Positions 8,719 to 48,419 of a DNA stretch of 53,727 bases are shown piece after piece. Origin of the DNA: a virus (lineage: Duplodnaviria > Caudoviricetes); the IMG/VR virus record IMGVR_UViG_3300027721_000020, positions 1 through 53,727 of that record. One strand, given 5' to 3'. The notes beneath the pieces were generated by a model. That model worked only from the letters and a program-made list of their open reading frames with translations. It made no database searches and had not been told where the DNA came from. The translations under genes were made by a program, and so were the position numbers. How positions within the stretch are numbered: the first letter of the stretch is position 1; every line of letters starts with the position of its first letter.

Positions 8719-9084
8719 ATGACATTATTCTCCCGAAAATCAACCACACGAGGTAAGGAGGTTAAATTTGTAGGGGTTCATTTTCCCCTACATCTTAATA
8801 CCTACATCACCTTATATGCAATGACAATGGAGACCTCAAAATCAGCCATTATTTGCAATGAATTAGAGGCTTGGAATAAAGCTAATGAAAAAACAATGTC
8901 AATTGATGCAATGGTTGCTATATTGGTAAAAAAGGCCATTGGATTGTATGAATCAGGAAGGGTACATAATAGCGCGGCTTTAAGAAAATTTCTAATAGAT
9001 ATACGAAAGGAATTAATTATCAAAGGGATAGATACGGATGTGGTCACAAAAATAATAAAACAGATACAAAATGGAGCGGACTAA
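8719..9084 (+). CDS. Putative ribbon-helix-helix DNA-binding protein
   Basis: KFVGVHFP strand followed by two helices (SKSAII); likely start MTLFSR. Confidence 0.5.
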   Translation: MTLFSRKSTTRGKEVKFVGVHFPLHLNTYITLYAMTMETSKSAIICNELEAWNKANEKTMSIDAMVAILVKKAIGLYESGRVHNSAALRKFLIDIRKELIIKGIDTDVVTKIIKQIQNGAD

Positions 9085-10177
9085 ACAAGTATCCTTACAT
9101 GCACAAATGAAACGGAAGGTTTCCGATGCGATTAAGACTCCCAATGGTAGATCGATCACTTCTGAGTTAATCCCAATGGGGTCTACTCTGCTTAATTTGG
9201 CAATGTCAGGGACAGTCCACGGTGGAGCCAAGAAGGGAACCATGATTAATATTATAGGTGCTAGTCATGGAGGGAAGTCTATCCTTGCATTGACTGCATT
9301 CGCCGAAGCGGCTTCCAGAAAAAGGTTTGATACCTACTCATTAATTTATGATGATGTTGAACGGGCAAATTCTTTTGACATGGAGTATATGTTTGGTGTT
9401 AATGCAGCTTCCAGGATAATCCCTCCTAGATTGGACAAAGATGACAATTATAGTTGCACTGTGCAACATTTACAGGCAAATGTAATGCACTGGCTTAGGA
9501 AGAAGGTACCTTTCATTTACGTATTGGACAGTTTTGATGCACTGGATGCCTTAGAAGACCAGAAAAAAGTAGAGGAAATGTCCGAAGCACTGGAAAAGGA
9601 TAAAAAAGATATACCCGGAACGTACGGAATGGCTAAGGCAAAAGCAGCAAGTAGTATATTGAGAGGCATCACAAGTGGGATAGCAGACACAAATAGTGCC
9701 TTATTCATTATTTCACAAACCAGAGATAATGTGGACCCCAGAGATTTTCAAAAAACAACCCGCTCTGGAGGACGTGCATTAAAATTTTATGCTCATCATG
9801 AATTGTGGTTATCAGTTAATGGTAGCAGTATTAGGAAAAAGGATACCGTAATAGGAAATTCCATTAAGGTTAAAATTTCCAAAAATAAAATAACTGGAAA
9901 GCAAAGGGAGGTAAAATTTGATATATATTATGATTATGGGATAGATGACATTGGTAGCTGTATTGATTATCTTATTGAAATGAAACGTTGGTCGGGTGGG
10001 GGATCTGCTAAAATAAACCATAATGGGGATTTTACATTTGAGAGTTGCACACGTGCGAAAATGATAGCACAAATGGAGGATGAGCGGTTATACACAAAAT
10101 TACAATCACTAGTCCAAGAGGAATGGGATTCCTTTGAGGAAAGCATACGGCTAAATCGTAAATCAAAATACACATAA
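9071..10177 (+). CDS. recA: RecA/UvsX-like recombinase
   Basis: GSTLLNLAM, Walker A GASHGGKS, VLDS, FIISQTR, SGGRALKFYA, KNK, YGID. Confidence 0.92.
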   Translation: MERTKQVSLHAQMKRKVSDAIKTPNGRSITSELIPMGSTLLNLAMSGTVHGGAKKGTMINIIGASHGGKSILALTAFAEAASRKRFDTYSLIYDDVERANSFDMEYMFGVNAASRIIPPRLDKDDNYSCTVQHLQANVMHWLRKKVPFIYVLDSFDALDALEDQKKVEEMSEALEKDKKDIPGTYGMAKAKAASSILRGITSGIADTNSALFIISQTRDNVDPRDFQKTTRSGGRALKFYAHHELWLSVNGSSIRKKDTVIGNSIKVKISKNKITGKQREVKFDIYYDYGIDDIGSCIDYLIEMKRWSGGGSAKINHNGDFTFESCTRAKMIAQMEDERLYTKLQSLVQEEWDSFEESIRLNRKSKYT

Positions 10178-10188
10178 AACCAAATAAA

Positions 10189-10353
10189 ATGAGGATACTG
10201 ATAAGATATATAATAGGGATATTAATAGGCATAATGGTTTCACAAGCAGGAAGATATAAATTACATATAGAAATGGTAATCGCATTGTTAGTAATGACAA
10301 TGTTAATAGCTGCGGATGTGTACATTACAAATTCAAAAAATGGAAAGAACTAA
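10189..10353 (+). CDS. Small two-TM membrane protein, 54 aa (absent from ORF track)
   Basis: MRILIRYIIGILIGIMVSQAGRYKLHIEMVIALLVMTMLIAADVYITNSKNGKN; fills the recA-ruvC gap. Confidence 0.6.
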   Translation: MRILIRYIIGILIGIMVSQAGRYKLHIEMVIALLVMTMLIAADVYITNSKNGKN

Positions 10354-10894
10354 GAATTCACCTAAGGCAAGTGAGCGGAAACGAATAATTTGTTTTGACC
10401 CTAGTTTGACCGCCTTTGGCTATGTAGTAATGCAGGGTAATCACCTAATTGCCAAAGGCTGTATTAAAACAGAGCCTAGTGGAAAAAAGCTAAGGATACG
10501 AAAGGGCGATGACCGTTGCCGTCGAATTACGGAAATAAATAGAGCATTATTACAAATTATTGAGGAGCATGATGTTTGTTATATCGTATCCGAACAACCT
10601 CACGGAAGCCAGTCCGCAGTTGCGGCTACTGCATTGGGTATAGTATTGGGTATTGTGCAGACGCTCGGAGACACCCTCAATATCGGAGTTGAGTGGTACA
10701 GTGAAGGAGATTCAAAAAAGAATGCCTTAGGCAAACAAACCGCAACAAAGATGGAAATGGTTAACAGAATGAATAAACTGTATAAGGTATCATGGTTTAA
10801 TGTCCAATACAAAGATGAGGCAGTGGCGGATGCCTTAGCGATTCATTACTTAGCCAGAAATCAATCTAATATACTGAAAATGATGTTATTATGA
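10340..10894 (+). CDS. ruvC: RuvC-like Holliday junction resolvase
   Basis: ICFDPSLTAFGY, IVSEQ, ATKMEM, DEAVADALAI acidic motifs; likely start MERTK. Confidence 0.85.
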   Translation: MERTKNSPKASERKRIICFDPSLTAFGYVVMQGNHLIAKGCIKTEPSGKKLRIRKGDDRCRRITEINRALLQIIEEHDVCYIVSEQPHGSQSAVAATALGIVLGIVQTLGDTLNIGVEWYSEGDSKKNALGKQTATKMEMVNRMNKLYKVSWFNVQYKDEAVADALAIHYLARNQSNILKMMLL

Positions 10895-11943
10895 TAAGGC
10901 TTCTAAAAATAGAAAATTTTCAAAGCCATAAGGATACTATTATGGAATTTGATAAAGGCATGAATGTAATTGTCGGACAGTCGGACAGTGGGAAGACTGC
11001 AATTATTAGAGCTTTGAAATGGCTGATGACAAACCGTCCTTTAGGTGAGGAGTTCCAATCGAATTGGGGAGGTAAGACAGTTGTAAGCATTACCACTACG
11101 GAAGGACATCTTGTGTCTCGTAGACAAGCGGAGAACGGAACGGACAAAACGTATATAATTGATACCGCACCACTAAAGGCATTCGGCACCGAAGTTCCTG
11201 ACGAAGTACTTTCCATATTAAATATGGATGAGACCAACCTTCAACAACAAATGGATAGTCCTTACTTATTAAATGATACTAGTGGAGCGGTCGCTGCACA
11301 TTTCAATAGGATAGCAGGACTTGAAAAAATAGACCGAGGTTTGCAGAATATTCAAAAGGAAATTAAAGCAAAAACTTCGGGCATAACGTATGCTAAACAA
11401 TCAATTGAAACAAAGGAAGCGGAATTACAAAGGTACTCTACATTAGCAAATTTTGAGGCGTATGTGATTAGAGTAGAGAGTATGGTTTTGCAAGAGGAGA
11501 AATTGAAAACCAAGATAAAAATATTAAAGGGAATGGAAGTACGAATAGAGGATATTACAAAAAAAACAAAAAGTATACTTGGTAAATTACGTAAGGAAGC
11601 CGCGATTAATTATATTTTGGAAAAATACAATAGAAAAAATGTATTGGTCGAAGAAAAGGAAGTATTGAACAATATTTCCATTAAGTATTTCCGAAAGCAA
11701 GAGGAAATAAAAAAGGCGGAAAAATCAATAATCGCAGAGGACAGCATAAATAAAATACTAATAGTATATCAAAACCGGGCAAAATCTTTGCAGGAATCAA
11801 TTAAAATAGCAAAACTATATCAAAATATAGCAGATAATAAAATAATGCAGGCGACCAAAGAAAAACAGGTAAAGATATTAGAAGCGCAATTTAAAAGTGA
11901 ATTCCCCGATATTTGTCCGTTGTGTAATTCAAAAATTAAATAA
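10891..11943 (+). CDS. sbcC: SbcC/Rad50-like ATPase, N-terminal half (Walker A, coiled coil, CPLC zinc hook)
   Basis: IENFQSH, GQSDSGKT, Q-loop QQQMD, ends CPLCNSKIK; no Walker B. Confidence 0.85.
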   Translation: MIRLLKIENFQSHKDTIMEFDKGMNVIVGQSDSGKTAIIRALKWLMTNRPLGEEFQSNWGGKTVVSITTTEGHLVSRRQAENGTDKTYIIDTAPLKAFGTEVPDEVLSILNMDETNLQQQMDSPYLLNDTSGAVAAHFNRIAGLEKIDRGLQNIQKEIKAKTSGITYAKQSIETKEAELQRYSTLANFEAYVIRVESMVLQEEKLKTKIKILKGMEVRIEDITKKTKSILGKLRKEAAINYILEKYNRKNVLVEEKEVLNNISIKYFRKQEEIKKAEKSIIAEDSINKILIVYQNRAKSLQESIKIAKLYQNIADNKIMQATKEKQVKILEAQFKSEFPDICPLCNSKIK

Positions 11944-11944
11944 T

Positions 11945-12103
11945 ATGGAAGCCGTACAATTAATAAAGATTGCGAATAAATTTTTAGAATTAAATCCAAG
12001 TTTTGGATTAGCTGGTTCCCTGATGTTATATATTAGAGGAATTTCCTTAAATAGGCCTATTGGTGATATTGATATTGTTGGCAACGAGAATCTGATCAAT
12101 TAA
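11945..12103 (+). pseudogene. Truncated Pol-beta-type nucleotidyltransferase fragment, 52 aa
   Basis: LAGSLML...RPIGDIDIV (GS..DxD) then immediate stop. Confidence 0.45.
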
Positions 12104-12116
12104 GATTTTTTCATAT

Positions 12117-13001
12117 ATGATACGAACTAAACATATACAACGTAAAAAAGTCGATGCAATATTGACAGGGGACTGGCATCTACAAGAAGGCGTTCCTCCT
12201 GTTTGTCGGCTTGACAATTTTGAGGAGACTCAATGGAGAAAAGTTCAATTTATTTCCGAACTTCAAAAGGAACACAATTGCCCTGTGGTTCATTCGGGAG
12301 ATTTATTTGATTTTTGGAAACCTTCTCCTGAACTACTCACCAAAACCATGTTGCGACTTCCTGATTATTTTTACACTATATACGGCAACCATGATTTGCC
12401 GCAACACAATTTGGAATTAGCTGTAAAAAGCGGTGTGAATACCTTAGCAGCGGCGGGTAAATTATGTATTTTAGAAGGAATCCACTGGGGGCAATCGCCT
12501 GTCAAATTATTACATGACCAACTTTTCAGGAAACCTACATTGATTTGGCACATCATGACCTATCAAGGTAAAGAGCCGTGGCCGGGATGTACTGACCCAA
12601 AGGCGGCTTCATTACTAAGGAAATACCCTCAATTTGATTTAATCCTAACAGGAGACAATCATAAACCTTTTGTTGAGGAATTTGAAGGGAGATTATTGGT
12701 AAATCCTGGTTCTATATTCAGGACTACGGCAAGTCAACAAGATCACAAGCCTAGGGTATACTTATGGTATGCAGACACCAACACAGTAAGTCCTGTATAC
12801 ATCCCTATTGAATCCGATGTGATTAGTAGAGAACATATTGAACGGCAAGAGGAACGTAATAATAGAATAGATGCTTTCATAACAACATTAAACCAAGATT
12901 GGCAGACAGGTAATGGATTTGAGGAAAATTTGGCACGTTGGGCTAAAGTTAACGATATAAGGAAATCTGTTATGGATATTATATATCGAGTTATGGAGTA
13001 G
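12117..13001 (+). CDS. sbcD: SbcD/Mre11-like metallophosphoesterase nuclease
   Basis: GDWH, SGDLFD, GNHD, GDNH, NPGS motifs. Confidence 0.92.
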   Translation: MIRTKHIQRKKVDAILTGDWHLQEGVPPVCRLDNFEETQWRKVQFISELQKEHNCPVVHSGDLFDFWKPSPELLTKTMLRLPDYFYTIYGNHDLPQHNLELAVKSGVNTLAAAGKLCILEGIHWGQSPVKLLHDQLFRKPTLIWHIMTYQGKEPWPGCTDPKAASLLRKYPQFDLILTGDNHKPFVEEFEGRLLVNPGSIFRTTASQQDHKPRVYLWYADTNTVSPVYIPIESDVISREHIERQEERNNRIDAFITTLNQDWQTGNGFEENLARWAKVNDIRKSVMDIIYRVME

Positions 13002-13026
13002 TTTTGAAACATTAAAAAACTTGCGT

Positions 13027-13230
13027 ATGGTACGGACGAAAAAAAGAGGAGAGTTATTAACACCTGCACGAAGGTTATTAATTAACCATGTTCTAATTTA
13101 CTTTCCGCATTGGAGAGGTTGTATCAAATATCAAACCAACACTTTCTTAATAGCCAATTGCCATCCAGAGCAACGGAATAGATTGAAGCATATTTTGGAA
13201 GACGAAATCTTAAAAAATAAAATGATATGA
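13027..13230 (+). CDS. Hypothetical protein (MVRTK start)
   Basis: ORF in operon; ATG at 13027. Confidence 0.55.
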   Translation: MVRTKKRGELLTPARRLLINHVLIYFPHWRGCIKYQTNTFLIANCHPEQRNRLKHILEDEILKNKMI

Positions 13231-13475
13231 TTACGGAAAAGGAATTGCTTGCTAAGAAAAAAGAAATTGAGAGGACTAAGGTCGAGCTTTCGGAATTGAA
13301 AGGTGAGGAAAAGGCGCTACTAAAACAACTTAATGAGGATTGGGGTATTAATTCCTTAGCAGAGGCGAAAAATAAAATTATTACTTTTGAAAAAGAAATA
13401 AAACAACTCAGTGAGGAGATAGAGGAAAAGACACAGGAATTAGAGGAAACCTATTTAAGCGAAGAGGATGAGTAA
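13227..13475 (+). CDS. Short coiled-coil protein, possibly a third SbcC fragment
   Basis: 82 aa of heptad-rich K/E/L sequence between the SbcC halves. Confidence 0.6.
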   Translation: MITEKELLAKKKEIERTKVELSELKGEEKALLKQLNEDWGINSLAEAKNKIITFEKEIKQLSEEIEEKTQELEETYLSEEDE

Positions 13476-13737
13476 AATAAATAAAGGACGTTCATTCACA
13501 TTGATAAATGGACAAGGTGAGCCTTTGATCTGTAAAAAGACTGGGCGCAATGCTATGTGCAGATGTGGCAGTGGCAAGAAAAATAAAAATTGTTGCAATA
13601 TCACTAACCAGTACTTTCTAAGTCCTACGGTAGCAATGAAAAAAAAGAAAGAGGAATTGGATGAAGCAAAAGAATATGATATTATCAAACAACTTTTAAT
13701 GGAAAATGGAAACTACAATTCAGGAAATTCGGAATAA
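13468..13737 (+). CDS. SEC-C motif zinc-binding protein
   Basis: GRNAMCRCGSGKKNKNCC matches SEC-C consensus GRNxxCxCGSGKKYKxC. Confidence 0.85.
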   Translation: MSKINKGRSFTLINGQGEPLICKKTGRNAMCRCGSGKKNKNCCNITNQYFLSPTVAMKKKKEELDEAKEYDIIKQLLMENGNYNSGNSE

Positions 13738-14314
13738 ATTGGAACGCCTAAAAGGTCAGAAAAACCAATTACTATTAGATTTGGCTAGTTTACGTAAATT
13801 TGTGAAAGTGGAAACTAGGGAGTTGGAGAAGTACGAGCAAGCTAAGGAAATAATACGGGAAGTAGGCTTACGGACTCAGGAGCAACTCCAATTCCATATT
13901 TCCGACATTACCTCACTTGCGTTGCAAGCTGTATTCCCTAATCCTTACACATTGGAGTTGGAATTTGTCAACAGACGGAACAAAACGGAATGTGATATTT
14001 ATTTTTCCCGTGAAGGAAATAGAATAGACCCACTCTCAGCAAGTGGAGGTGGCGCTGTTGACATTGCTTCGTTTGCGTTACGTATTGCTTCTTGGTCCTT
14101 ACAAACTCCGCATTCGAGGAGCACGATAATACTTGATGAGCCTATGAGGTTTGTATCTGAAAGTCTCAGGGATAAAGCTTCGGCAATGATTAAGGAGGTT
14201 AGTGAAAAATTAGGGATTCAATTCATAATAATTACCCATGAACCAAAACTATCTGCTTATGCAGATAAGGTATTCGAGGTACAAAATAACAAAGGTATAA
14301 GCAAGGTCATATGA
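13706..14314 (+). CDS. sbcC: SbcC/Rad50-like ATPase, C-terminal half (signature, Walker B, H-loop)
   Basis: ASGGG signature, FALRIA, IILDEP, FIIITH. Confidence 0.85.
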   Translation: METTIQEIRNKLERLKGQKNQLLLDLASLRKFVKVETRELEKYEQAKEIIREVGLRTQEQLQFHISDITSLALQAVFPNPYTLELEFVNRRNKTECDIYFSREGNRIDPLSASGGGAVDIASFALRIASWSLQTPHSRSTIILDEPMRFVSESLRDKASAMIKEVSEKLGIQFIIITHEPKLSAYADKVFEVQNNKGISKVI

Positions 14315-14322
14315 AATATCTA

Positions 14323-14353
14323 AGGAGGTACTGTAATAATACCTCCTCTTTTG
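14323..14353. terminator. Hairpin at the convergence of the replication and structural arms
   Basis: AGGAGGTA-N9-TACCTCCT followed by CTTTT. Confidence 0.6.
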
Positions 14354-14482
14354 TGTAAATAATCCTTGCTAATTTTTTAGCCTTATTTCCGTTATAATAC
14401 CTTATATTATCGCCTACACATACCTCTACTTCCTTTATTATTGGAGCATTTTCAGAATGTCTTATGGTGATGCTTACCATAC

Positions 14483-14919: not shown

Positions 14920-14941
14920 ATTCTTTCCCCTCCTTTTCCTT

Positions 14942-15280: not shown

Positions 15281-15283
15281 ATC

Positions 15284-15805: not shown

Positions 15806-15809
15806 ACCC

Positions 15810-19460: not shown

Positions 19461-20213
19461 CTAAGGTATCGTCATTGTTACATTCACGGACATACTAAGC
19501 TTAAGGGAAGGAGTGTTAAAGTTATATATTTTCCTAATATATAATTGCGTTCCATTCAGTTGAGTCCCAATGGCAAAAATATCTACCGTTCCAGAAAAAT
19601 TCTTAATTACTACCTCTACTTCGTAATTTCCAGCATAAACCATTTCTGCCGTAAAAAAGAACGGGGTGTTTTCTGCCGCAAATACCCCCCTGCACGATAT
19701 TCCGTTCATGGATCTTCCTGAAGGAAGCACAGGGGAGAATACAACTTTTTGCCCAGTATTAATATCCGCTTCTGCTGTAACGGAGTACGCCATCGCCCCC
19801 ATTAATGAGTTTCCTGATTGAGGGTCTACTCCAGTAGCATTGACCCTATACGTATTAGGGACGAAATTACCTACAAAAAAATCATTTTTTAGAGTAGCGT
19901 TCATTAAGACTTGATTAGCTGCCGTTAGCAACCCACTGCCTGTTTTCGCAGTAATTTCTCCATCCGTAGCCATTCGATTAATCCCCATAACCACAGTAGT
20001 CATAACACTATCGTAGAATGCCTTAGGAGTCATTGCTTGATAGTTATTTGCGTTGGACGAGATTACCGCATTGGTAAGGATTGTTTGCAAAAGCAACTTT
20101 TTTGCATCCGTAAAGCTTGTAGCGTCTACCGCCAAATATAGGGTTGCTAGTAACGCTTGAATTTGCCCCGAGGAGACTTCTCCATCTAAATCTTTTATTC
20201 GTGAATCTGCCAT
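19461..20213 (-). CDS. Minor tail protein
   Basis: MADSRIKDL start, AMTPK and MATDGE fibre-like motifs. Confidence 0.55.
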   Translation of the reverse strand: MADSRIKDLDGEVSSGQIQALLATLYLAVDATSFTDAKKLLLQTILTNAVISSNANNYQAMTPKAFYDSVMTTVVMGINRMATDGEITAKTGSGLLTAANQVLMNATLKNDFFVGNFVPNTYRVNATGVDPQSGNSLMGAMAYSVTAEADINTGQKVVFSPVLPSGRSMNGISCRGVFAAENTPFFFTAEMVYAGNYEVEVVIKNFSGTVDIFAIGTQLNGTQLYIRKIYNFNTPSLKLSMSVNVTMTIP

Positions 20214-20218
20214 ATTGG

Positions 20219-21145
20219 TTAGTTAGTTATTATTTTATTTGTTGTGCCACTAAGAAAGGCATCCGTATCATTCCATAATAGCCTTGCCTGTCTTATTAAT
20301 ATATAATTTGTTTTGGTCATTGTTGCAAATCCTCCTACACTATTGAAAACCTGCAATGAAACAGTATAAATACCTTCATTAATGTAAGTATGTGAAGGGT
20401 TACTAGCATCCGAGGTGCTACCGTCCCCAAAATCCCACGACCATAATCCAATTGTACCCGTACTTAAGTCGGTGAACACCACGGTTTGTGGTTTTATTCC
20501 CGATGTGATATTGGCGGAAAAATCAGCCAACAAAACTGCCACGTCCACCTCATCTGAATCAATATCTATCACAACATCAATGGGGACATTTGCCAGAAGT
20601 GAACCCTTTGCATATGCCCCCGAATTGCTTACTATTGCCCTTTCACCATTTCCCCAGTATAATTGAGCTGTCTTTCCTTTGGTGTAAACAATGGTAAGAA
20701 CTCCTAATACTATTGATGTATAATATTTAACGGCCTTTGGATTAACGTCTTTCAATCCTATTTTGAAAAGATAGAGGCTGTTGCTATTCCTTATTTTAAG
20801 GTCTGCGGCGATCGCATTAGACCTGCTGCACAAATAGCATTGCCTTAACCCTTGTGCAGTATCCCGTAAAGACAGGACGAACACCGATTTTGAATACAAA
20901 TAATCTGTGAAGGTCTTAACCAATACGTATGCAGCGGACAATGTAGAAGCCTTGCAATAACAAGATAGGACAAACTCCCTTGCATCGTATTTTACATTGG
21001 ATAAGTCTCTGTCCACCCCCGATTTGTCCTCCCATGTACGTTCCTGTACCCTTTCTGCGGGAAATGAAAAAACATCCGTATAATCCAGTACCTCTACTCC
21101 GTATACGGTTTTTAAATCCTTATTATCTATCAATATGCTTATCAT
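20219..21145 (-). CDS. Distal tail (Dit-like) protein with C-terminal PKD domain
   Basis: Follows tape measure; ADFSAN..FTDLSTG..WSWDFGDG..NPSHTY..GIYTVSL PKD signature. Confidence 0.75.
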   Translation of the reverse strand: MISILIDNKDLKTVYGVEVLDYTDVFSFPAERVQERTWEDKSGVDRDLSNVKYDAREFVLSCYCKASTLSAAYVLVKTFTDYLYSKSVFVLSLRDTAQGLRQCYLCSRSNAIAADLKIRNSNSLYLFKIGLKDVNPKAVKYYTSIVLGVLTIVYTKGKTAQLYWGNGERAIVSNSGAYAKGSLLANVPIDVVIDIDSDEVDVAVLLADFSANITSGIKPQTVVFTDLSTGTIGLWSWDFGDGSTSDASNPSHTYINEGIYTVSLQVFNSVGGFATMTKTNYILIRQARLLWNDTDAFLSGTTNKIITN

Positions 21146-36717: not shown

Positions 36718-37290
36718 TTAGTCGGGGAATAAAGGTTGTTCCACACTAATATCCAGCCTGGTGGCGGATTCATATCCCATCAACTTGTCTATCCGTTGTA
36801 AGGCTATTGTCTTTGGGTGCAGCTTTATTTTTACATAGATTACTTCCACCAGCTCTTTGGATACTATTCGTTGTTCGGTTTTGTATTCTATTGATTCGAT
36901 AGCATCCTTCTCATCTGAGGTTAATTTTGTGTACTCTGCCAATTCGGTCCACTTATTGTGTATCTTACCTATGGATGAATACGCTATTTTCATATATTCC
37001 TTAATTTGCCTTGCTTTAGTTATGCCGCACAGTAATTCAAAATCGTCCTTTATATAAGCTATGTACTGCCTTACCTTATTGTTCCTTAATATCCTATTCC
37101 CCTGCACTGCCGCAGTGTTATCCGTGCTACAATCATTGTAAACCTCCTTATAAGCCTGTGTTTTATTCCACCCATTATTAACATATGCCATAGCCATCAT
37201 TTTCCACCTTACAGGCAAATCTCTCTCCAGTGCATACTTTGAATACACCTTATCAAGTTTTTCATGATTCCTCGGTTTTGTCCTTTCCAT
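36718..37290 (-). CDS. terS: Terminase small subunit
   Basis: NKTQAYKEVY..AAVQGNRIL HTH, KIKLHPK..ALQRI; upstream of terL. Confidence 0.85.
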   Translation of the reverse strand: MERTKPRNHEKLDKVYSKYALERDLPVRWKMMAMAYVNNGWNKTQAYKEVYNDCSTDNTAAVQGNRILRNNKVRQYIAYIKDDFELLCGITKARQIKEYMKIAYSSIGKIHNKWTELAEYTKLTSDEKDAIESIEYKTEQRIVSKELVEVIYVKIKLHPKTIALQRIDKLMGYESATRLDISVEQPLFPD

Positions 37291-37530: not shown

Positions 37531-37547
37531 TAAAAACTTGCAAAATG
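37531..37547 (+). promoter_or_regulatory. Start-associated box TAAAAACTTGCAAAATG, copy 1
   Basis: Exact copies at 37853, 47932, 49653; near copy at 48112. Confidence 0.85.
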
Positions 37548-37852: not shown

Positions 37853-37869
37853 TAAAAACTTGCAAAATG
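37853..37869 (+). promoter_or_regulatory. Start-associated box, copy 2
   Basis: TAAAAACTTGCAAAATG. Confidence 0.85.
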
Positions 37870-39884: not shown

Positions 39885-41690
39885 ATGGCGAATAAATTCA
39901 TGGCTCTTAAAATGGCTAACTTATTTGAGATAGGAGACGATACGGTAATTCGTTTGGTCTTCCCTTTCAACCAGTACACCATTGATAATGTTAAGGCAAT
40001 ACCAGGAAGAAGGTATTCGGTTGAGCAAAAATATTGGACCGTCCCTCTACGAATAGAGAACTATTTTGAACTGAAGGAACTTCTTTTTTCCTTCGGTAGT
40101 GAATTGCAAAATTGGGCTGATAATGAGATCAGATCAAAAAAAGCCAAGTCTGTTAACCTTGACTTATCGGGGGTAAAAGGGACATTGTTGCCGTATCAAA
40201 TTGAAGGGGTCAAAGCGATTGAAAATAATGAAGGAAGGTGTCTATTGGCAGATGAGATGGGACTAGGTAAAACAGTACAAGCTTTGGTATGGCTTCACAC
40301 TCATCCCGAATTGCGTCCGGCACTCGTGGTTTGCCCTGCTAGTTTGAAATTAAATTGGGAGAAGGAAGCGTTAAAATGGATTAAGTGTAAGGATGTTCAG
40401 GTATTAGAAGGGAAGGAACTTGTTGCTTTGTCAAATGATATTATTATTATTAATTATGACATTATCGGAAATGATTCGAGACAATCTATCTCTAAAACAG
40501 GAGAACCCATGTTTAAGCCCAATGGTAAGCCTCGTATGGAAGAAATACCTAATTCTGGCTGGCAAGATGAATTGATTGCACATAACATCAAGGTAATAAT
40601 TTTGGATGAATCACATTACATCAAAAACGAAAACACCAAAAGAGCTACAGGAGTAAGGTCAATTTGCAGAGGAGTAAAACATATATTAGCTCTTACTGGT
40701 ACACCTATTGAAAATAGGCCTATTGAACTATATAATATTGTGGCTATGCTAAAGCCTACGTTATTTCCGAATAAATGGAACTACCAGCACCGATTTTGCG
40801 GAGCAAAGCACAACGGTTTTGGATGGGATTTTTCGGGGTCGAGCAATACGGAGGAACTTCATGAACTATTGACAAAATGGGTCATGATAAGGCGCATGAA
40901 AAGGGATGTTTTGCAAGATTTGCCGGATAAGATCTACTCATATATTCCGCTAAGAATTACTAACAGAGGAGAATATCGTAAGGCAGAGCAGGATTTTGTG
41001 GATTATTTACAAAATAAGGTATTAGGCACTTTGCAAAATAAGGTGGAGGAAAGTATGCAATTAGGTTTTCCTGAGATGCAGTTCACCGAAGCGTCTGTGG
41101 AAAATCTCAAACAAAGTATAGCGGACAAAACGAACCCATTAACAATAATAAGTGGATTAAAACAGTTAGCTGCACAAGGTAAAATAAACGGGATGTTAGA
41201 ATGGGTAGAGGATTTTCTGGAATCTGGCGAAAAACTTGTCTTATTTTGTGAACATATATTTGTAGTGGACGCCGTAATGGAGAAGTTCAACAAGGTGGCT
41301 GTGAAGGTCATAGGAGGAATGTCTGCAAAAAATAAGGAACTGTCAGTAACACAGTTCCAAGAAAACAAAAAAATAAAACTATTTGTAGGCACTTCTGCGG
41401 CAGAAGTAGGTTACACTTTGACCGCTGCATCAAATGTAGGAATTATTGAATTCCCCTGGAAACCTGGGCAACTATCCCAACGGGTAGATAGGCTACATAG
41501 AATCGGACAAAAGAATGCTGTTAATGTGTATTATTTCATCGGGGTAAGAACTATTGATGCGAAAATTGCCGAATTACTTGATGGAAAACAGAAGGTGCTA
41601 GATGCGGTATTAGATGGAAAAGAGACCGAAACGGTTAATTTAATCACAGAACTCATAAAAAAATATAAAAATGGAAATATCTCTAACTAA
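39885..41690 (+). CDS. SNF2-family (HARP/SMARCAL1-like) helicase
   Basis: LADEMGLGKT, VVCPASL, ILDESH, ALTGTPIEN, RLHRIGQ; N-terminal HARP-like segment. Confidence 0.93.
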   Translation: MANKFMALKMANLFEIGDDTVIRLVFPFNQYTIDNVKAIPGRRYSVEQKYWTVPLRIENYFELKELLFSFGSELQNWADNEIRSKKAKSVNLDLSGVKGTLLPYQIEGVKAIENNEGRCLLADEMGLGKTVQALVWLHTHPELRPALVVCPASLKLNWEKEALKWIKCKDVQVLEGKELVALSNDIIIINYDIIGNDSRQSISKTGEPMFKPNGKPRMEEIPNSGWQDELIAHNIKVIILDESHYIKNENTKRATGVRSICRGVKHILALTGTPIENRPIELYNIVAMLKPTLFPNKWNYQHRFCGAKHNGFGWDFSGSSNTEELHELLTKWVMIRRMKRDVLQDLPDKIYSYIPLRITNRGEYRKAEQDFVDYLQNKVLGTLQNKVEESMQLGFPEMQFTEASVENLKQSIADKTNPLTIISGLKQLAAQGKINGMLEWVEDFLESGEKLVLFCEHIFVVDAVMEKFNKVAVKVIGGMSAKNKELSVTQFQENKKIKLFVGTSAAEVGYTLTAASNVGIIEFPWKPGQLSQRVDRLHRIGQKNAVNVYYFIGVRTIDAKIAELLDGKQKVLDAVLDGKETETVNLITELIKKYKNGNISN

Positions 41691-42093
41691 TAGATTACAC
41701 TCATTTGAGAAAATGAATGGTGTGACCTTATATTCAAAAAAATATGGACACCATGATATGTATAAATGTGCAAAATGCGGAATCGAGGGGATACGTATAG
41801 GTTTGCATCCTTCTATTTTTTTACAACGCCTATACGATAGTGGTATAATCAGAGGTTGTAAGGATAGTGATAATTCATGGGTAGGGGTATTGATAGTAAT
41901 TCGACAGTGCTCGGCTGCAGGTCCTAGAGTTGATAACTTAACCCCTGATTCAATCCATGTAACGGTCGCTCCTCCAGACAATGAATATACAGGAGACATT
42001 GGGGTCTGGGTAATGGGTACTACTGAACCTGTAAAAATATTATGGTCAGAATTTTCAAAATATATTATGAAACGAACAAAAAAAAGGATATGA
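41671..42093 (+). CDS. Hypothetical Cys-containing protein
   Basis: DMYKCAKCGIEG; GVWVMG; ends MKRTKKRI. Confidence 0.65.
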   Translation: MEISLTNRLHSFEKMNGVTLYSKKYGHHDMYKCAKCGIEGIRIGLHPSIFLQRLYDSGIIRGCKDSDNSWVGVLIVIRQCSAAGPRVDNLTPDSIHVTVAPPDNEYTGDIGVWVMGTTEPVKILWSEFSKYIMKRTKKRI

Positions 42094-42290
42094 AAAAAAT
42101 GAAAAAAATTAAAATAATATTTATTTGGATAACATCAATCACAATTGTACTAATTGGTTGGATATCCATCTTATTTTACAGAGGATTAGCTGAATACTCT
42201 CCGTTTTTAACGGTGGTAAGTACATTTACAATAGGTCCTGCAATACTTTGGTATATTGAACTTTTAATTAATTTATTTACAGAGGATTAG
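42090..42290 (+). CDS. Small two-TM membrane protein
   Basis: Two hydrophobic segments. Confidence 0.6.
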   Translation: MKKMKKIKIIFIWITSITIVLIGWISILFYRGLAEYSPFLTVVSTFTIGPAILWYIELLINLFTED

Positions 42291-42292
42291 CA

Positions 42293-43204: not shown

Positions 43205-43211
43205 TAACAGT

Positions 43212-43454
43212 ATGTATAGTAATCGAACATGGTTAAATCCTATAGAATCGGACAGTACAGGTTCTATTGTATGTTACAGCGGAAAAGTTACATACAAAAG
43301 AAAACCAGTGAGTTCCACATTTATAGAAATATCGGATTGTCAAAATAAAGTAAGACTCCATCTATCATCAGATGACACTGTGGAGGATTTTATCCGCAAA
43401 TTAAGTGTATTAAAAAAAGAGATTGGAAAATTTATAGAGTATTTAGACCAATAA
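43212..43454 (+). CDS. Hypothetical protein
   Basis: RTWLNP..STG..ISDCQNKVRLH..FIRKL. Confidence 0.65.
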   Translation: MYSNRTWLNPIESDSTGSIVCYSGKVTYKRKPVSSTFIEISDCQNKVRLHLSSDDTVEDFIRKLSVLKKEIGKFIEYLDQ

Positions 43455-43457
43455 TAT

Positions 43458-43679
43458 ATGGAAAATGTGACTAAATGTAACAATGAGGACAGTACAGGGG
43501 ATGGTGGACATTATTTTTTGGCGATAATAGATATGATAGAAATTATATCTAAGATTAATGAAAATTATGGTGTGCTTTCGTGCTCAATTTGTGGAAATGA
43601 CTTAAAATGGTCTAAAGCAATTAATGGCCATATTAAAGGAAAATGTCTTACGGAAAATTGTGCATCCTGGATGATGTAA
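43458..43679 (+). CDS. Small zinc-ribbon-like protein
   Basis: CSICG..NGH..C.TENC. Confidence 0.6.
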   Translation: MENVTKCNNEDSTGDGGHYFLAIIDMIEIISKINENYGVLSCSICGNDLKWSKAINGHIKGKCLTENCASWMM

Positions 43680-43754
43680 CTCGAATTAAATTATTATTTG
43701 TAACTTTACGTTCTATTTAGAACGGTGTTTTAGTATTAATTTTAAATTTTTTGT

Positions 43755-44159
43755 ATGAAACCAATTAAAACGTTGTTTGCTTTGTTTGCCTTGTTTTCTT
43801 GCATGTTTGTTGCAGGAAAAGCTTACGGATTATCAAGTACGGATATTTTTACAGGGAAGGAGGTGTCCGTTATGGAAAGCACTAACTCCGTACTGCCATT
43901 AAATACCTTTATTTGCAGTGAGTTTGCTTACTATTATTCATCTTTAGGCTTACATTTTTTGGTCGAATCAGGAAAAGACGTGTTTACGTTTCCTGAGGAA
44001 ACCGATTGGGGCAATTATGTGCAGGGCATGACACATATACCTTATTTCAGGCAAAATAAGTTTCCTTCATATACACGGTCAGGACAAATTTGCCGAAAAA
44101 TACCGACATTAGAAAATTTAGGTGGACTATCTTGCGGCGGACAAGGAGATAGATGTTAA
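43755..44159 (+). CDS. Secreted/lipoprotein candidate
   Basis: Signal peptide MKPIKTLFALFALFSC; own TAACTTTAC element at 43701. Confidence 0.55.
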   Translation: MKPIKTLFALFALFSCMFVAGKAYGLSSTDIFTGKEVSVMESTNSVLPLNTFICSEFAYYYSSLGLHFLVESGKDVFTFPEETDWGNYVQGMTHIPYFRQNKFPSYTRSGQICRKIPTLENLGGLSCGGQGDRC

Positions 44160-44250
44160 TAATATCACATTATAATACTTTGATTATCATATTATTAGGT
44201 ATTATTTTCGATTTAATTTTTGGGGGTTAATTATTTTTTGTACTTTTACG

Positions 44251-44307
44251 TTACTCTACAAAATAATGCTAAATTGTGCCATAATATATCATTATTTTGT
44301 AGAGTAA
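44251..44307. repeat. Perfect 18-bp inverted repeat with 21-nt loop
   Basis: TTACTCTACAAAATAATG (44251..44268) and CATTATTTTGTAGAGTAA (44290..44307). Confidence 0.9.
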
Positions 44308-44332
44308 ATTGTTATTAGTTTTTAGTTGAATC

Positions 44333-44388
44333 AAAAGTCTTTGGGGAGTAGGTGAGGCACCACTGAAACCCAAGGGCTTTTTTATTTT
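44333..44388 (+). terminator. Terminator/attenuator-like hairpin upstream of replication initiator
   Basis: AAAAGTCTTTGGG...CCCAAGGGCTTTT followed by T-tract. Confidence 0.6.
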
Positions 44389-44482
44389 AAAAATTTCATG
44401 ATATGAATACAATAAAGGAGAAAAAAGAACTATTAAAAAACCATAATACAGGAAATGGAATCCACAAATAAATAGACGGTAT

Positions 44483-45292
44483 ATGAAAAATACAAATTAT
44501 TTTGTTATTCAAGGATGGATGATAAATGAATTAAAACTAGGTGGAACGAATCTTATGATTTACGCCATAATTTATGGATTTTCACAGGATGAAAATTCCT
44601 CATATACTGGAAGTTTAGCATATTTAGCATCTTGGGTCAATGCAAGTAAACCTACTGTAATTAAGGCACTAAAGGAACTGGTAGACTTGGAGTTAATTTA
44701 CAAACATACCGAAGTTAAAAATAAGATAATTTTCAACTCGTATAAGGTATTAACGGTAGTAAAGGAACTTTACGGGGGTAGTAAAGAACCTTTACAGGGG
44801 GGTAGTAAAGAACCTTTACTCAATAATAAACAATATATACATAAAGAAATAAATAATAAAAAAAATAAACAAAAAAAAACTGAAATCATTACAAAAATGG
44901 AAAGGACTAAACCTTCCAAAATAAAAGAATCCATATCCGCCAAATCAACATTACCGAACTTCTATTTCGATTACGGATTTTTCACAAATGATTTTTCCAA
45001 AATATGGTTTGATGAATTCCTTCCATTGAAAAAAAGGAAGAAAGCAGCGATTACTGAACGAGCATTGAATTCCCAATTGAAAAAAATAAGCAATTATAGC
45101 CAAAATAATTATGATACTGCCTTAGAAATCCTTGAAAATAGTGTTAATGCGGGTTGGTCAGATTTTTATCCATTAAAAAATAAAACCAATTACACTCCAA
45201 CAAACAAATTAGGCTCCCGTTCTCAAACTTCCCATACCATTGACTATTCGAGCAAGGGGAAAAAAATACTTCATTTTTCTGAAATGTCATAA
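44483..45292 (+). CDS. Replication initiator (winged HTH, replisome-organiser/lambda O-like)
   Basis: LMIYAIIYGFSQD..YTGSLAYLA..SKPTVIKALKELV; internal iterons; followed by DnaC-like gene. Confidence 0.8.
   Translation: MKNTNYFVIQGWMINELKLGGTNLMIYAIIYGFSQDENSSYTGSLAYLASWVNASKPTVIKALKELVDLELIYKHTEVKNKIIFNSYKVLTVVKELYGGSKEPLQGGSKEPLLNNKQYIHKEINNKKNKQKKTEIITKMERTKPSKIKESISAKSTLPNFYFDYGFFTNDFSKIWFDEFLPLKKRKKAAITERALNSQLKKISNYSQNNYDTALEILENSVNAGWSDFYPLKNKTNYTPTNKLGSRSQTSHTIDYSSKGKKILHFSEMS
44755..44819 (+). repeat. Three 19-bp iterons (putative origin) followed by an A-rich tract
   Basis: GGTAGTAAAGGAACTTTAC at 44755; GGTAGTAAAGAACCTTTAC at 44777 and 44801; each contains GTAAAG..CTTTAC dyad. Confidence 0.8.
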
Positions 45293-45296
45293 ATTA

Positions 45297-45893
45297 ATGA
45301 TTATGAAAGAGTTCAAACATGCACCAATAGAAATTCAGGCTGAAAGGAATACTTTTTGGCAGGAAAATAAAAAACAGGAAATAATAAAATACTTCTCTCC
45401 AAGAGTAGCTAAGGTAATATCGGAGGTATACTCACCAAGTATGGAGTACCCTATCCCCAGTTGCTACATGTATGGTAAAACAAGGACAGGCAAAACAATT
45501 GCCGTGTATATTCGGTTATTAGAATGGTGCAGAATCCAATACATTAATAGAGGAATGATGAATTACAAGGTAACCTCTGTATTGCACCTGCTTGAAAGTC
45601 TTAGGAATAATTACAATAATCCTGAAATAAAGGAATTAATTGTCAGTGATGCGAAAAATGCAAGATTGCTGGTATTAGATGATTTTGGAGCGGAAAAGAT
45701 TACCGAATGGGCGTTCATGATGCTGTATGACATTATTGACCACAGGTATAACAACCTATTGACCACGTTCTACACCTCCAATTTGTCATTGAATGAGCTG
45801 AGTGCCCAATTACAGGATGACAGAATCCCATCCAGAATAGCACAGGATTGCGGTGAAAACATTTTTGAGTTTACAAATAAACCATATATTTAA
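45297..45893 (+). CDS. DnaC/IstB-like helicase loader ATPase
   Basis: GKTRTGKT, LLVLDDFGAE, IIDHRY, YTSNL, DRIPSRI. Confidence 0.9.
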   Translation: MIMKEFKHAPIEIQAERNTFWQENKKQEIIKYFSPRVAKVISEVYSPSMEYPIPSCYMYGKTRTGKTIAVYIRLLEWCRIQYINRGMMNYKVTSVLHLLESLRNNYNNPEIKELIVSDAKNARLLVLDDFGAEKITEWAFMMLYDIIDHRYNNLLTTFYTSNLSLNELSAQLQDDRIPSRIAQDCGENIFEFTNKPYI

Positions 45894-46025
45894 TTCCGTT
45901 CGGTTTAAGCGATTATTTTTTGAAAACAATACATAGACATTGATTTTACATTTTATTAGCTCTCCAGCAAAATTTTACGTTGTTCCGTAAGGTTAAATTA
46001 ATAACTTAAAGTAATTAGTATCATT

Positions 46026-46244
46026 ATGAATGAAAATATAAATTGGACTAAACATAAAGAAGACCTTATAGAGAAGGGAAAATCCCTCAACCAAGTTGAA
46101 CTAAACAAGGTAATTCTTACCTTAGATAATTATAGGAATGGCATCATACTGTCAGTAGACCTACCTAATCGGGAAGTCATATTATTATACATTGAAGGTT
46201 TAATGGAAATATACAAAACCTTAAAAACCACTAACAATTTCTAA
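46026..46244 (+). CDS. Hypothetical protein
   Basis: 72-aa ORF. Confidence 0.55.
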   Translation: MNENINWTKHKEDLIEKGKSLNQVELNKVILTLDNYRNGIILSVDLPNREVILLYIEGLMEIYKTLKTTNNF

Positions 46245-46255
46245 TCATTATAAAA

Positions 46256-47833
46256 ATGATTGAACGTCAAATAATAATTGGACTAATTACGTCCACAGCG
46301 TACCTTAAGAGGATTAAGCCTTCTTGGAATCCTATGTTACTGGAATCCTTTACAGCTAGATTGTTAGCTGATTGGGCATTTTCCCATTTTAAAAAATATG
46401 GAAAGGCTCCTAATAAGGAGATTGAAGCTATTTTTTTCAAAAAAGCAAGGGAAGGATTCAGTATGGTCTTTACAAAGGAAATAGCAGAAGAGATAGAAGA
46501 GGACATCCTGCCGGACCTAAGTGATGAGAGTGTTCACACTGAATTTGATTTAGAATACATGGTATCTGAGACATTGGTTTATTTGCGCTCTAGGCAGATA
46601 CTTATTTATGGTTCGCAGCTCACCAATATAATTGAAAACGGAAAAGGTGATATTGAGGAACGGATAAAACAAGCGGATAACATATCGAAGGAGTTCAAAA
46701 TTGTCAATACAATAAAGGACACAAGTATAGACCTGAGCAAAAAAGAAAGTCGGACAAACATAAAAAAGGCTTTTTGTAGTGCAGGGGACTGCATCGTCCA
46801 TTGGCCAAAACAATTAGGGCGATTTTGGAATGATAATTTTGTAGCAGGAGGATTCCTTTCTATTTTGGCTACTGAAAAACGGGGAAAGACATTTTGGTTA
46901 TTAGAAATTGCCATTCGAGCTGCCAGGCAAGGCAGAAAAGTAGCTTTCTTCCAAGCTGGAGATATGAACGAAGCGGAACAATTGAAGCGGATAGGAGTAT
47001 ACCTTTGCAAGCGTTCCAACTTGGAAAAGTATTGTAGTACTCATTGGGAACCTGTGAGAGACTGCATATTGAATCAAATGGACGAATGCGGAAAATCTGA
47101 AAGGGAATGCGATTACGGCATATTCCAAGAATTGAAAGAGGATGAAATTCGTAAATTAGGAAGCAAGGAGTTAATAGAGGCTGCGGAATCAGTAGAAGAC
47201 TACCTTCCATGCTACAATTGTAAGGATTATGACTTGAAAAAATTAGGAGCTCCTTATGTGAGAAAGGTGAGGAGCGTAGAACCATTAGAATGGAAAGACG
47301 TAGATAACGCTGTGGAGAGATTTTTCCGAAAATTCAAAAGGAGCTTCAAATTAGACACCTCAGCAAGCGGGACACTCTCAATAGATGCTGCTATTTCCAA
47401 AATGGATGCTTGGCAGGAGGAGGATGGATTTGTTGCGGATGTTGTGTTGTTTGACTATGCAGATTTGCTGGTACCTTCAATCAAAACAGAATTCAGGCAC
47501 CAGCAAAACCAAATATGGAAAGACCTGCGGAAGCTTTCACAGACAAAAAGAGAAGGCATACTTCCATTAGTAATATCACCTACGCAGGCTGATGCTCCTG
47601 CCTATAAGGCATATAGACTAAGTTTAGCAAATTTTTCTGAGGATAAACGTAAATATGGGCATGTTACTGCTATGTGGGGACTTAATCAGGACCCATTAGG
47701 ACGGGAAAAAGGAATAGGTCTAATGAGAATTAATGAACTAATTAAACGAGATGGAGATTTTTGCGAAACAAACGAAATAACTGTTTTACAGAATCTTAGG
47801 CAAGGACGACCATTTAAAGGAAGCTATTTTTAA
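46256..47833 (+). CDS. DnaB-like (SF4) replicative helicase with Cys-rich insertion
   Basis: ATEKRGKT, VLFDYADL, SPTQA, FSED motifs. Confidence 0.8.
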   Translation: MIERQIIIGLITSTAYLKRIKPSWNPMLLESFTARLLADWAFSHFKKYGKAPNKEIEAIFFKKAREGFSMVFTKEIAEEIEEDILPDLSDESVHTEFDLEYMVSETLVYLRSRQILIYGSQLTNIIENGKGDIEERIKQADNISKEFKIVNTIKDTSIDLSKKESRTNIKKAFCSAGDCIVHWPKQLGRFWNDNFVAGGFLSILATEKRGKTFWLLEIAIRAARQGRKVAFFQAGDMNEAEQLKRIGVYLCKRSNLEKYCSTHWEPVRDCILNQMDECGKSERECDYGIFQELKEDEIRKLGSKELIEAAESVEDYLPCYNCKDYDLKKLGAPYVRKVRSVEPLEWKDVDNAVERFFRKFKRSFKLDTSASGTLSIDAAISKMDAWQEEDGFVADVVLFDYADLLVPSIKTEFRHQQNQIWKDLRKLSQTKREGILPLVISPTQADAPAYKAYRLSLANFSEDKRKYGHVTAMWGLNQDPLGREKGIGLMRINELIKRDGDFCETNEITVLQNLRQGRPFKGSYF

Positions 47834-47840
47834 AAAAATA

Positions 47841-47894
47841 TTTAAAAATAAGTTTAAAAAAGTTTGGAAATTGGAAAATAAGCATTAACTTTAC
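47841..47894 (+). promoter_or_regulatory. Duplicated early promoter, copy B (TTTG-N19-TAACTTTA)
   Basis: Near-identical to 37437..37491. Confidence 0.75.
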
Positions 47895-47931
47895 GGTATA
47901 ATTGATTGAATAAAATTTATTATTAATAATT

Positions 47932-47948
47932 TAAAAACTTGCAAAATG
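47932..47948 (+). promoter_or_regulatory. Start-associated box, copy 3
   Basis: TAAAAACTTGCAAAATG. Confidence 0.85.
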
Positions 47949-48107
47949 GAACAAATAGTAAAGAATATACGAATTAATACTTTTACAGACGCAAAAAAGG
48001 CTTTAAAGGAATCTGCGAAAAGAAATAAACAAGGTATCCCTACTTGCATCGCAGTATGTTACATAAATAATGTAAAAACATATCATTTAGGGCCTCGTAT
48101 TTTTTAA
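47946..48107 (+). CDS. Hypothetical protein, 53 aa (absent from ORF track)
   Basis: MEQIVKNIRINTFTDAKKALKESAKRNKQGIPTCIAVCYINNVKTYHLGPRIF; ATG inside conserved box. Confidence 0.65.
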   Translation: MEQIVKNIRINTFTDAKKALKESAKRNKQGIPTCIAVCYINNVKTYHLGPRIF

Positions 48108-48111
48108 CATG

Positions 48112-48127
48112 TAAAAACTTGCAAAAT
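48112..48127 (+). promoter_or_regulatory. Start-associated box, copy 4 (ATG displaced to 48132)
   Basis: TAAAAACTTGCAAAAT-AACA-ATG. Confidence 0.8.
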
Positions 48128-48131
48128 AACA

Positions 48132-48419
48132 ATGGTAAGAACAAAACCCCGAAGAGGTCCTAACGACCCTGTAATATCCTCTATTAAAATAGGGAGAAAA
48201 ATATATGAGGTAAAGAAAGGAGATTACATATTATACAATCAAAGCTGTTACCAATTTTATACTGGAGATAATAGGACCTTACGTTACAATAATCATACCT
48301 GCTATCGCTATATTATGCTACCATATTTGGCAATACAAGATATACCTCTGCATAAAATGAAAAAAATAATCGAGGAAAAGAACCTCACAAATTGGATATT
48401 GGAATACTATTTTTTCTAA
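48132..48419 (+). CDS. Hypothetical protein (MVRTK start)
   Basis: 95-aa ORF. Confidence 0.65.
   Translation: MVRTKPRRGPNDPVISSIKIGRKIYEVKKGDYILYNQSCYQFYTGDNRTLRYNNHTCYRYIMLPYLAIQDIPLHKMKKIIEEKNLTNWILEYYFF

Follow-up and report, generated by a model that had tools for sequence, protein, structure and literature searches.

An M-x-R-T-K peptide at the N-termini of unrelated DNA-processing proteins in an uncultured phage lineage: a candidate docking tag

Results and Discussion

Several unrelated proteins encoded by IMG/VR virus record IMGVR_UViG_3300027721_000020 begin with the same five residues, M-x-R-T-K. We analyzed the full record as one window of 53,727 bases (rated 89% complete), which family searches of its proteins identify as a tailed phage. 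Judged by sequence comparison, M-[K/E/I/Q]-R-T-K is genuine as a peptide signal and is tied to the N-terminus. We favor, as plausible if short of probable, the view that it docks or recruits its carriers to a polyanionic hub, either an acidic-tailed, gp32-type single-strand DNA-binding protein (SSB) or DNA.

The peptide recurs at gene starts

Open reading frames (ORFs) were called by a simple longest-ATG rule, giving 77 in three strand blocks. The observation of the shared peptide was confirmed. All eight M-x-R-T-K sites listed in an initial annotation of this DNA were found where it had placed them, and Pfam and PHROGs searches bore out the identities it had proposed for the RecA/UvsX-like, RuvC, SbcD-like, and small terminase (TerS) proteins. 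The nine copies of the pattern comprise six gene starts, one internal Met of the initiator, one C-terminal tail, and one off-frame match:

9071-9085, plus strand: MERTK (MERTKQ), start of the RecA/UvsX-like recombinase (gene 9071-10177; Pfam RecA domain from residue 29)
10340-10354, plus strand: MERTK (MERTKN), conserved RuvC start (gene 10340-10894; 10316 for the longest ORF)
12117-12131, plus strand: MIRTK (MIRTKH), start of the SbcD/Mre11-like nuclease (gene 12117-13001)
13027-13041, plus strand: MVRTK (MVRTKK), start of a 67-residue orphan just after SbcD (gene 13027-13230)
37276-37290, minus strand: MERTK (MERTKP), start of the small terminase subunit TerS (gene 36718-37290)
48132-48146, plus strand: MVRTK (MVRTKP), start of a 95-residue orphan upstream of QueD (gene 48132-48419)
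44897-44911, plus strand: internal in-frame MERTK (MERTKP), residue 139 of the 269-residue initiator (gene 44483-45292)
42067-42093, plus strand: C-terminal MKRTKKRI and stop, the last 8 residues of a 140-residue product (gene 41671-42093)
7083-7097, plus strand: off-frame copy inside gene 6911-7393, with no ORF of at least 40 residues after it; probably chance

The pattern ATGNNNMGNACNAAR matched nine times in the window, compared with a mean of 0.42 (standard deviation 0.57, maximum 2) in 100 dinucleotide shuffles, so that the count against shuffled sequence proposed in the initial annotation places the motif far above chance. The reversed pattern, used as a control, matched once. R-T-K occupied residues 3-5 in 5 of the 77 called proteins, or 6 of 77 when RuvC is taken from 10340, while about 0.04 were expected from N-terminal composition. 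When residues 2-12 were shuffled 20,000 times, at most 2 proteins carried R-T-K at this place. M-x precedes 8 of the 11 R-T-K tripeptides in the proteome, and the remaining three, truly internal, match the prediction from composition.

Some of these sites need comment. We take 10340, not 10316, as the conserved RuvC start because RuvC in relatives starts at the tag directly after stop codons. Neither the 67-residue nor the 95-residue orphan matched a Pfam or PHROG family, and the latter gave no usable Atlas match. The internal Met of the initiator at 44897 follows an A-rich run, with A at -13, -12, -6, and -3, a context in which it is a possible start for a 131-residue C-terminal product. MERTKP was missing at the same place in 119 other listed initiator homologs, bar one I-K-E-R-T-K, and is therefore specific to the window phage; the initiator of G001, a complete 69-kb relative, reads L-K-R-T-I, with its L encoded by TTA. 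We dropped the initiator copy as proof of a position-independent motif, since a feature unconserved among homologs tells nothing either way. The status of the C-terminal MKRTKKRI as a tag is uncertain. An A8 run lies inside its codons (42042-42100 region), and an ORF at 42042-42290 overlaps it in another frame, probably starting at a later Met (MKKMKKI...). The A8 junction may be a slippery site, or it may reflect nothing more than compact gene packing.

The tag is not a general habit of translation without Shine-Dalgarno (SD) sequences. An SD-like 4-mer occurred at 8 of the 77 window gene starts and at none of the other 69, and the frequency of A upstream of starts was 0.66-0.70 at -13 to -11 and 0.58 at -3. 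This SD-less, A-rich context matches the pattern that the available text of PMC6847099 describes for Bacteroidetes. As controls we used 80 SD-less phage loci (544,501 bases) with A-rich sequence upstream of starts and TerL 52-64% identical to that of the window, and they gave 3 pattern matches and 3 reversed-control matches, with an M.RTK start in 0 of their 657 ORFs of at least 100 residues. Pattern counts in 41 Bacteroidota genomes and five further metagenome-assembled genomes (MAGs) likewise resembled the reversed control. It is this lack of excess in the control loci and Bacteroidota genomes that speaks against a general habit. Separately, four head-to-tail 15-base units at 58370-58429 of contig G013:C1 (ATGATGAGGACGAAG plus one variant) produce four adjacent pattern matches, which are a tandem repeat in a distant tagless relative, not gene starts.

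Conservation acts on the peptide

Codon usage within the tag indicates that selection acts on the peptide. Among 27 tagged ORFs from 12 sources, Arg was written as CGA (7), AGA (6), AGG (6), CGT (5), and CGG (3), Thr with four codons, and Lys with two, and only G8, A10, C11, A13, and A14 were fixed across the tag copies. Codon variation in the window was as the initial annotation had reported, and its proposal of conservation at the protein level is supported by this codon diversity together with the retention of Arg3 described below.

The SbcD family provided the largest sample. A search of a large protein collection returned 1,701 homologs at E up to 1e-10, and SbcD start counts here and below refer to the best 120 of these (57-100% identity), which are mutually related, so that the counts describe conservation and not independent trials. 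Contigs of 50-75 kb carry many of the SbcD homologs. Sixty start exactly with M.RTK, five more do so after a few extra called residues, and 106 start with M.R. In these 106 sequences position 2 was K (56), E (26), I (14), Q (9), or V (1), position 4 was T in 79, and position 5 was K in 73; replacements within the tag were conservative (S, K, N, R). Gly, Cys, Trp, and Ser never occurred at position 3 (0 of 106), and Arg3 was invariant in a 31-row SbcD alignment. Five Arg codons at a position that is always Arg are the basis for our conclusion that the peptide is selected. Positions 6-8 of the 106 sequences were variable, with a bias to K, Q, T, and N.

Similar starts were found in other families. 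A TerS scan of IMG/VR gave no relative, while a larger protein search found 23 others; the 8 nearest (41-55% identity) start with M.RTK (6) or M.RAK (2), and the 15 more distant ones are without the tag. For RuvC, four of 150 cluster representatives start with exact M.RTK, three (P0268, P0271, P0272) among the closest 25 and one (P0309) lower, and most R-T-[R/T] variants also fall among the closest 25. The nearest representatives begin MKRTKQ, MERTKS, and MKRTKK. RecA orthologs begin MNRTKQ, MVRTNK, MQRSKK, MKRTLK, MQRKKK, and MERTKT, and relatives found via RecA (42-68% identity) have a basic M-x-R-[T/S/K]-[K/N/T] start on RecA, RuvC, SbcD, and the small ORF that follows SbcD. This syntenic ORF begins MKRTKG in G001 and MKRRKP in L013. 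The tag is thus kept in orthologs of near relatives, whose lack of it would have counted against the motif as originally proposed.

The tag is a disordered extension ahead of conserved folds

The initial annotation had described the tag as an extension preceding the conserved fold, and Pfam domain starts, distant homologs, and a structural model of SbcD agree. Pfam domains start at residue 16 in RuvC and in SbcD (Metallophos), 29 in RecA, and 31 in TerS (Terminase_2). In the AlphaFold model of SbcD, with a mean predicted local distance difference test (pLDDT) score of 87.8, residues 1-7 score below 50 and the first strand lies at 14-17, so the tag residues are predicted to be disordered.

The tag is fixed at residues 1-5, and the linker behind it varies from ~10 to 75 residues, the range also seen for RuvC linkers. 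In tagged SbcD the first metal-ligand Asp lies at residue 15-44 (median 18), compared with 9-13 in three untagged members. This spacer is always present, basic, lysine-rich, and at least ~10 residues long. Residue 2 was never A, S, G, T, or P in the 106 SbcD homologs starting with M.R. Methionine aminopeptidase removes the initiator Met only when residue 2 is small, and Met1 should therefore stay.

The tag is restricted to one phage lineage

Tagging followed the phage lineage, not the protein family. Five families (SbcD, TerS, RuvC, RecA, and the portal of G001 and its relative G006) are tagged in the nearest relatives only. Distant SbcD proteins on syntenic contigs (e.g., L132, L135, L136) begin at the fold without an extension, as do distant RecA proteins on syntenic contigs, and distant RuvC has its first Asp at residue 5-7, with no extension. 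Two distant phage-size contigs had tagged starts in 0 of 98 and 0 of 128 ORFs. Because distant homologs lack the extension, we conclude that tag and spacer were added in one sub-lineage.

The window and G001 share only a replication, recombination, and modification module (21 of the 77 window proteins), and their TerS proteins are unrelated, yet both are tagged. TerS of G001 begins MKRTKN at an internal Met of its longest ORF, the G001 portal begins MERTKN, and G001 TerL has K-R-T-K at residues 6-9. A 502-residue head-module protein of G001 has a 162-residue in-frame C-terminal product beginning MKRTKF. The structural module of G001 is also found in G006, in which the portal begins MERTKH and a 129-residue protein beside the major head protein begins MERTKS. 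The 502-residue protein (G001 19485-20993; L034 486-1994, minus strand) matches PHROG 760 over residues 7-226 only, and by its sequence the last 162 residues may be a nested scaffold-like gene. These carriers affect the earlier view that tagged proteins share a role in DNA processing. That view holds for RecA, RuvC, SbcD, and TerS, but not for the portal, the small head-module protein, and the nested scaffold-like product of the relatives.

A gp32-type SSB is a candidate hub

7416-8717, plus strand: gp32-type single-strand DNA-binding protein of 433 residues, three genes upstream of RecA, identified by alignment, model, and structure match

This protein gave no Pfam, PHROG, or PDB sequence match. 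Seven orthologs share H62, C98, C106, and C109 (a zinc site), a basic N-terminus, and an acidic tail of ~190 residues, which contains two near-identical acidic repeats, a conserved short helical mini-domain, and a terminal Cys motif. The Cys motif is kept in 6 of the 7 aligned orthologs, and distant relatives have a more divergent Cys-rich C-terminal segment. The modeled core (pLDDT 70-90) had the T4 and RB69 gp32 cores as its best PDB matches (E 1e-5, probability 1.00, target template modeling score 0.56), and on this model we identify the product as a gp32-fold SSB. Given its long acidic tail, we infer that it is a good candidate for a common hub of the tag, of the kind that the initial annotation had suggested. 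A complex prediction for SSB and SbcD scored 0.01, which is not an interpretable answer and speaks neither for nor against binding.

Interpretation of the tag

We interpret the tag as a possible docking signal. One uncultured phage lineage would have added the tag and a disordered lysine-rich linker to the front of unrelated proteins that act on phage DNA, namely a recombinase, a resolvase, an Mre11-type nuclease, a small terminase, and, among relatives, the portal. With its basic and hydroxyl residues exposed, the tip of the tag may then bind a single polyanionic partner, common to all carriers, where DNA is replicated, recombined, and packaged. As this partner we rank first the phage's own gp32-type SSB, with its very long acidic tail and acidic core surface, where the tip of each client could use the same surfaces as the LAST peptide of T4 gp32; DNA itself is a second candidate. 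Binding by the tag and the identity of its partner are what we infer here. The points we count in favor are selection on the peptide, the obligatory basic spacer, restriction to a lineage, the tagging of unrelated TerS proteins, and the presence of a fitting hub. The spacer counts because an effect confined to codons 3-5 needs none.

Known systems offer partial parallels. As described in the available text of PMC12893549, the N-terminal Lys-Arg-Lys-Ser-Thr (LAST) motif of T4 gp32 docks on the acidic surface of a neighboring DNA-bound gp32 core, and the acidic C-domain of gp32 binds other replication, recombination, and repair proteins. The tag resembles LAST as a very short basic and hydroxyl peptide at the extreme N-terminus of proteins on phage DNA, in a phage with a gp32-fold SSB. 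It differs in that LAST belongs to the SSB and confers cooperativity between SSB molecules, whereas here the peptide sits on other enzymes. Hub-docking motifs, such as those of SSB-tail clients and clamp binders, are similar in placing one short motif on a flexible tail of many unrelated DNA enzymes. Usual SSB clients have a folded basic pocket and the peptide is on the SSB, while here the clients carry the peptide, at residues 1-5. Bacterial clamp-binding motifs are hydrophobic penta- or hexapeptides of the Q-L-x-L-F type, and we found no such motif in the basic, polar tag and linker.

Several observations weigh against docking on the SSB. An ordinary linear motif would not have to sit strictly at residues 3-5, and such anchoring fits a translational explanation too. 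The portal, the 121-129-residue head-module protein, and the nested product of the 502-residue protein in G001 and G006 are poorly explained by recruitment to an SSB, while other DNA enzymes of the window (polymerase, helicases, primase, and clamp loader) are without the tag. With two basic residues and a single hydroxyl residue, the R-T-K core does not keep the LAST composition of three Lys/Arg and two Ser/Thr, although some SbcD copies come near it, with K at position 2 (56 of 106) or position 6 (26 of 106). The acidic SSB tail also occurs in tagless distant relatives, and the C-terminal Cys motif in 3 of the 4 examined (L132, L136, and L023), so no SSB feature co-varies with the tag. More broadly, none of the 21 proteins shared by the window and G001 clearly tracks the tag across six contigs, some of them incomplete. 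The tagless G013:C1 and G015:C1 lack only the DpdA/QueD/QueE/FolE genes, the initiator, and gp8668, but the Que genes and initiator are also missing from the tagged G011:C2 and G012:C35, and gp8668 from G012:C35.

The main and serious rival, which the initial annotation had not considered, is that R-T-K at codons 3-5 (nucleotides 7-15) controls early elongation through the nascent peptide on the ribosome, setting, and probably throttling or gating, the output of mostly low-copy proteins. We regard this as unlikely, though far from negligible. It accounts well for a tag held exactly at residues 3-5 whatever the linker length, for its presence at likely internal starts (the window initiator, preceded by an A-rich run, and the 162-residue part of the 502-residue G001 protein), and for a functionally mixed set of carriers that includes a portal and a head protein. 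Protein yield in E. coli depends strongly on amino acids 3-5, or nucleotides 7-15, through both peptide and RNA, but the favorable motifs given in the available text of PMC6920384 were K|N-Y|I, not RTK. Arg/Lys-X-Arg/Lys ("+X+") is the main ketolide stalling motif in the accounts available from PMC8298421 and PMC12583479. The tag shares both the ORF window and the R-x-K tripeptide class with the translational ramp and +X+ motifs, and the place at codons 3-5 together with an Arg/Lys-X-Arg/Lys form is found in 6 window genes and 60 of the best 120 SbcD homologs. Since R-x-K is a stalling tripeptide when a macrolide or ketolide occupies the tunnel, the carriers could form a regulon responsive to a tunnel ligand. 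Yet ramp and +X+ effects, as far as these sources describe them, are general ribosome properties drawn from reporters and antibiotics, whereas the tag is conserved, lineage-specific, and followed by a spacer. A ribosome-level optimum should recur, but the 657 ORFs of the SD-less phages and the 41 Bacteroidota genomes are without it. The most abundant phage proteins are also untagged (MGGKLK opens the major head protein and MAKKQR the SSB), and the basic 10-75-residue spacer and the K, Q, T, N bias at positions 6-8 are left unexplained.

The tag could also determine the fate of its carriers, as an N-terminal degron through which a host or phage protease times turnover or as a capsid-targeting sequence for loading into or onto the procapsid, which we consider improbable. 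Degrons and the T4 capsid-targeting sequence, itself a short N-terminal tag on unrelated phage proteins, typically sit at the N-terminus on a flexible linker, and in G001 and G006 the portal, the head-module protein, and the nested scaffold-like product are tagged, so some carriers do belong to the head module. In the window, the structural module is tagged only on TerS and on no virion protein, the portal and head proteins being untagged. RecA, RuvC, SbcD, and the initiator domain are unlikely cargo. The T4 sequence is found on virion-internal proteins and is cut at a conserved prohead-protease site, whereas the tag here mainly marks TerS and enzymes of recombination and replication, and no protease site or conserved cleavage motif was seen behind it, where positions 6-8 are variable. 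No protease was found among the 21 proteins common to the window and G001. Explanations that involve no peptide signal, such as an RNA or DNA element over the start codon (a translational-repressor operator or part of a promoter), a recently copied 5' cassette, or chance, are extremely improbable. Every copy is on the coding strand and includes the ATG, the carriers at 13027 and 48132 also have AAAAACTTGC just upstream, and 16 of 17 bases are identical between the TerS copy and the initiator copy, but a motif with only five fixed DNA bases and Arg written both CGN and AGR does not behave like a nucleic-acid site. An N-G-N motif would allow Gly, Cys, Trp, and Ser at position 3, which never occur there in SbcD. 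We rejected recent cassette copying because the flanks of the copies are mutually unrelated and share no similarity, and chance is excluded by the pattern and residue 2-12 shuffles. We regard a nucleic-acid element or chance as excluded for practical purposes.

In a more specific form of the docking interpretation, the tag would serve as an address at the N-terminus, read by a dedicated phage- or host-encoded protein whose pocket would accept the retained Met1, a long residue 2, and Arg3-Thr4-Lys5, and which would gather the recombinase, resolvase, nuclease, initiator domain, terminase, and, among relatives, the portal into one SSB-based factory for replication, recombination, and packaging. 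We hold this to be distinctly unlikely. The initial annotation had likened the tag to the ARTK start of histone H3, which also has R-T-K near a free N-terminus. This resemblance is superficial: H3 readers depend on an Ala1 that removal of Met has freed, while residue 2 of the tag is K, E, I, Q, or V in all 106 SbcD homologs starting with M.R, and Met should stay. No reader domain was found.

Genomic context

The window encodes a T4-like recombination module with a weak UvsY-like match, the RecA/UvsX-like recombinase, RuvC, the SbcD-like nuclease, and SbcC in two halves. It also has replication genes of its own (clamp, clamp loader, polymerase, helicases, primase, initiator, and DnaC-like loader) and a modification set:

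574-1575, 48442-49540, 50885-51466, and 51758-53176: 7-deazaguanine DNA-modification set (DpdA-like transglycosylase, QueD, QueE, GTP cyclohydrolase, and a further radical-SAM protein)

The modification set is common to the window and G001, while four related contigs are without it. The SbcC/Rad50-like ATPase is encoded as two separate halves, an N-terminal one at 10891-11943 (350 residues) and a C-terminal one at 13706-14314 (202 residues), which matches the C-terminal part of SMC_N. SbcD, the 67-residue tagged orphan, a coiled-coil protein, and an 89-residue ORF lie between the halves, in the same order in all relatives seen. A small conserved protein between SSB and RecA (8719-9084), with no family found in family searches, begins M-T-L-F-S-R-K-S-T-T, another basic and hydroxyl N-terminus; its relatives begin MTLFSKKKSS or MKIFTKKNSE.

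We also observed six exact copies of AAAAACTTGC, all on the plus strand (13015-13024, 37532-37541, 37854-37863, 47933-47942, 48113-48122, and 49654-49663). All six end 3-10 bases before ATG gene starts (13027, 37545, 37867, 47946, 48132, and 49667), and two of the six genes are tagged. Allowing one mismatch gave 18 matches, compared with 8.5 expected. By its sequence and placement, AAAAACTTGC looks like a promoter or operator abutting the start codon, and the transcripts may be near-leaderless.

Searches of the GenBank phage collection gave no match to the DNA of 9071-13230 and no homolog of the SbcD protein, and thus yielded no cultured relative. SbcD relatives fall in MAGs labeled as nine different phyla or classes, which we read as mis-binned phage contigs.

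Significance

Literature searches, which did not cover supplements, returned no description of the tag: peptide strings gave unrelated matches, and searches for shared phage N-terminal targeting motifs gave nothing relevant. We found nothing in print on the tag as a shared docking or address-like peptide, although this kind of peptide is itself known.

Shared docking peptides wire replisomes and repair machines, and few such codes are known in phages. Here, one five-residue N-terminal code spans several unrelated families in a large lineage for which metagenomes are the only source. Should the tag be a nascent-peptide signal, SD-less organisms would provide a natural case in which a whole regulon uses the codon 3-5 window. 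If it has a dedicated reader, that reader would be a prokaryotic-virus counterpart, in logic, of the eukaryotic readers of N-terminal tails and would physically couple recombination-dependent replication to packaging. If it is a docking signal, as we favor, the peptide would offer a pull-down handle on the hub that organizes replication, recombination, and packaging in this unstudied system, as well as a portable tag for targeting proteins to that hub.

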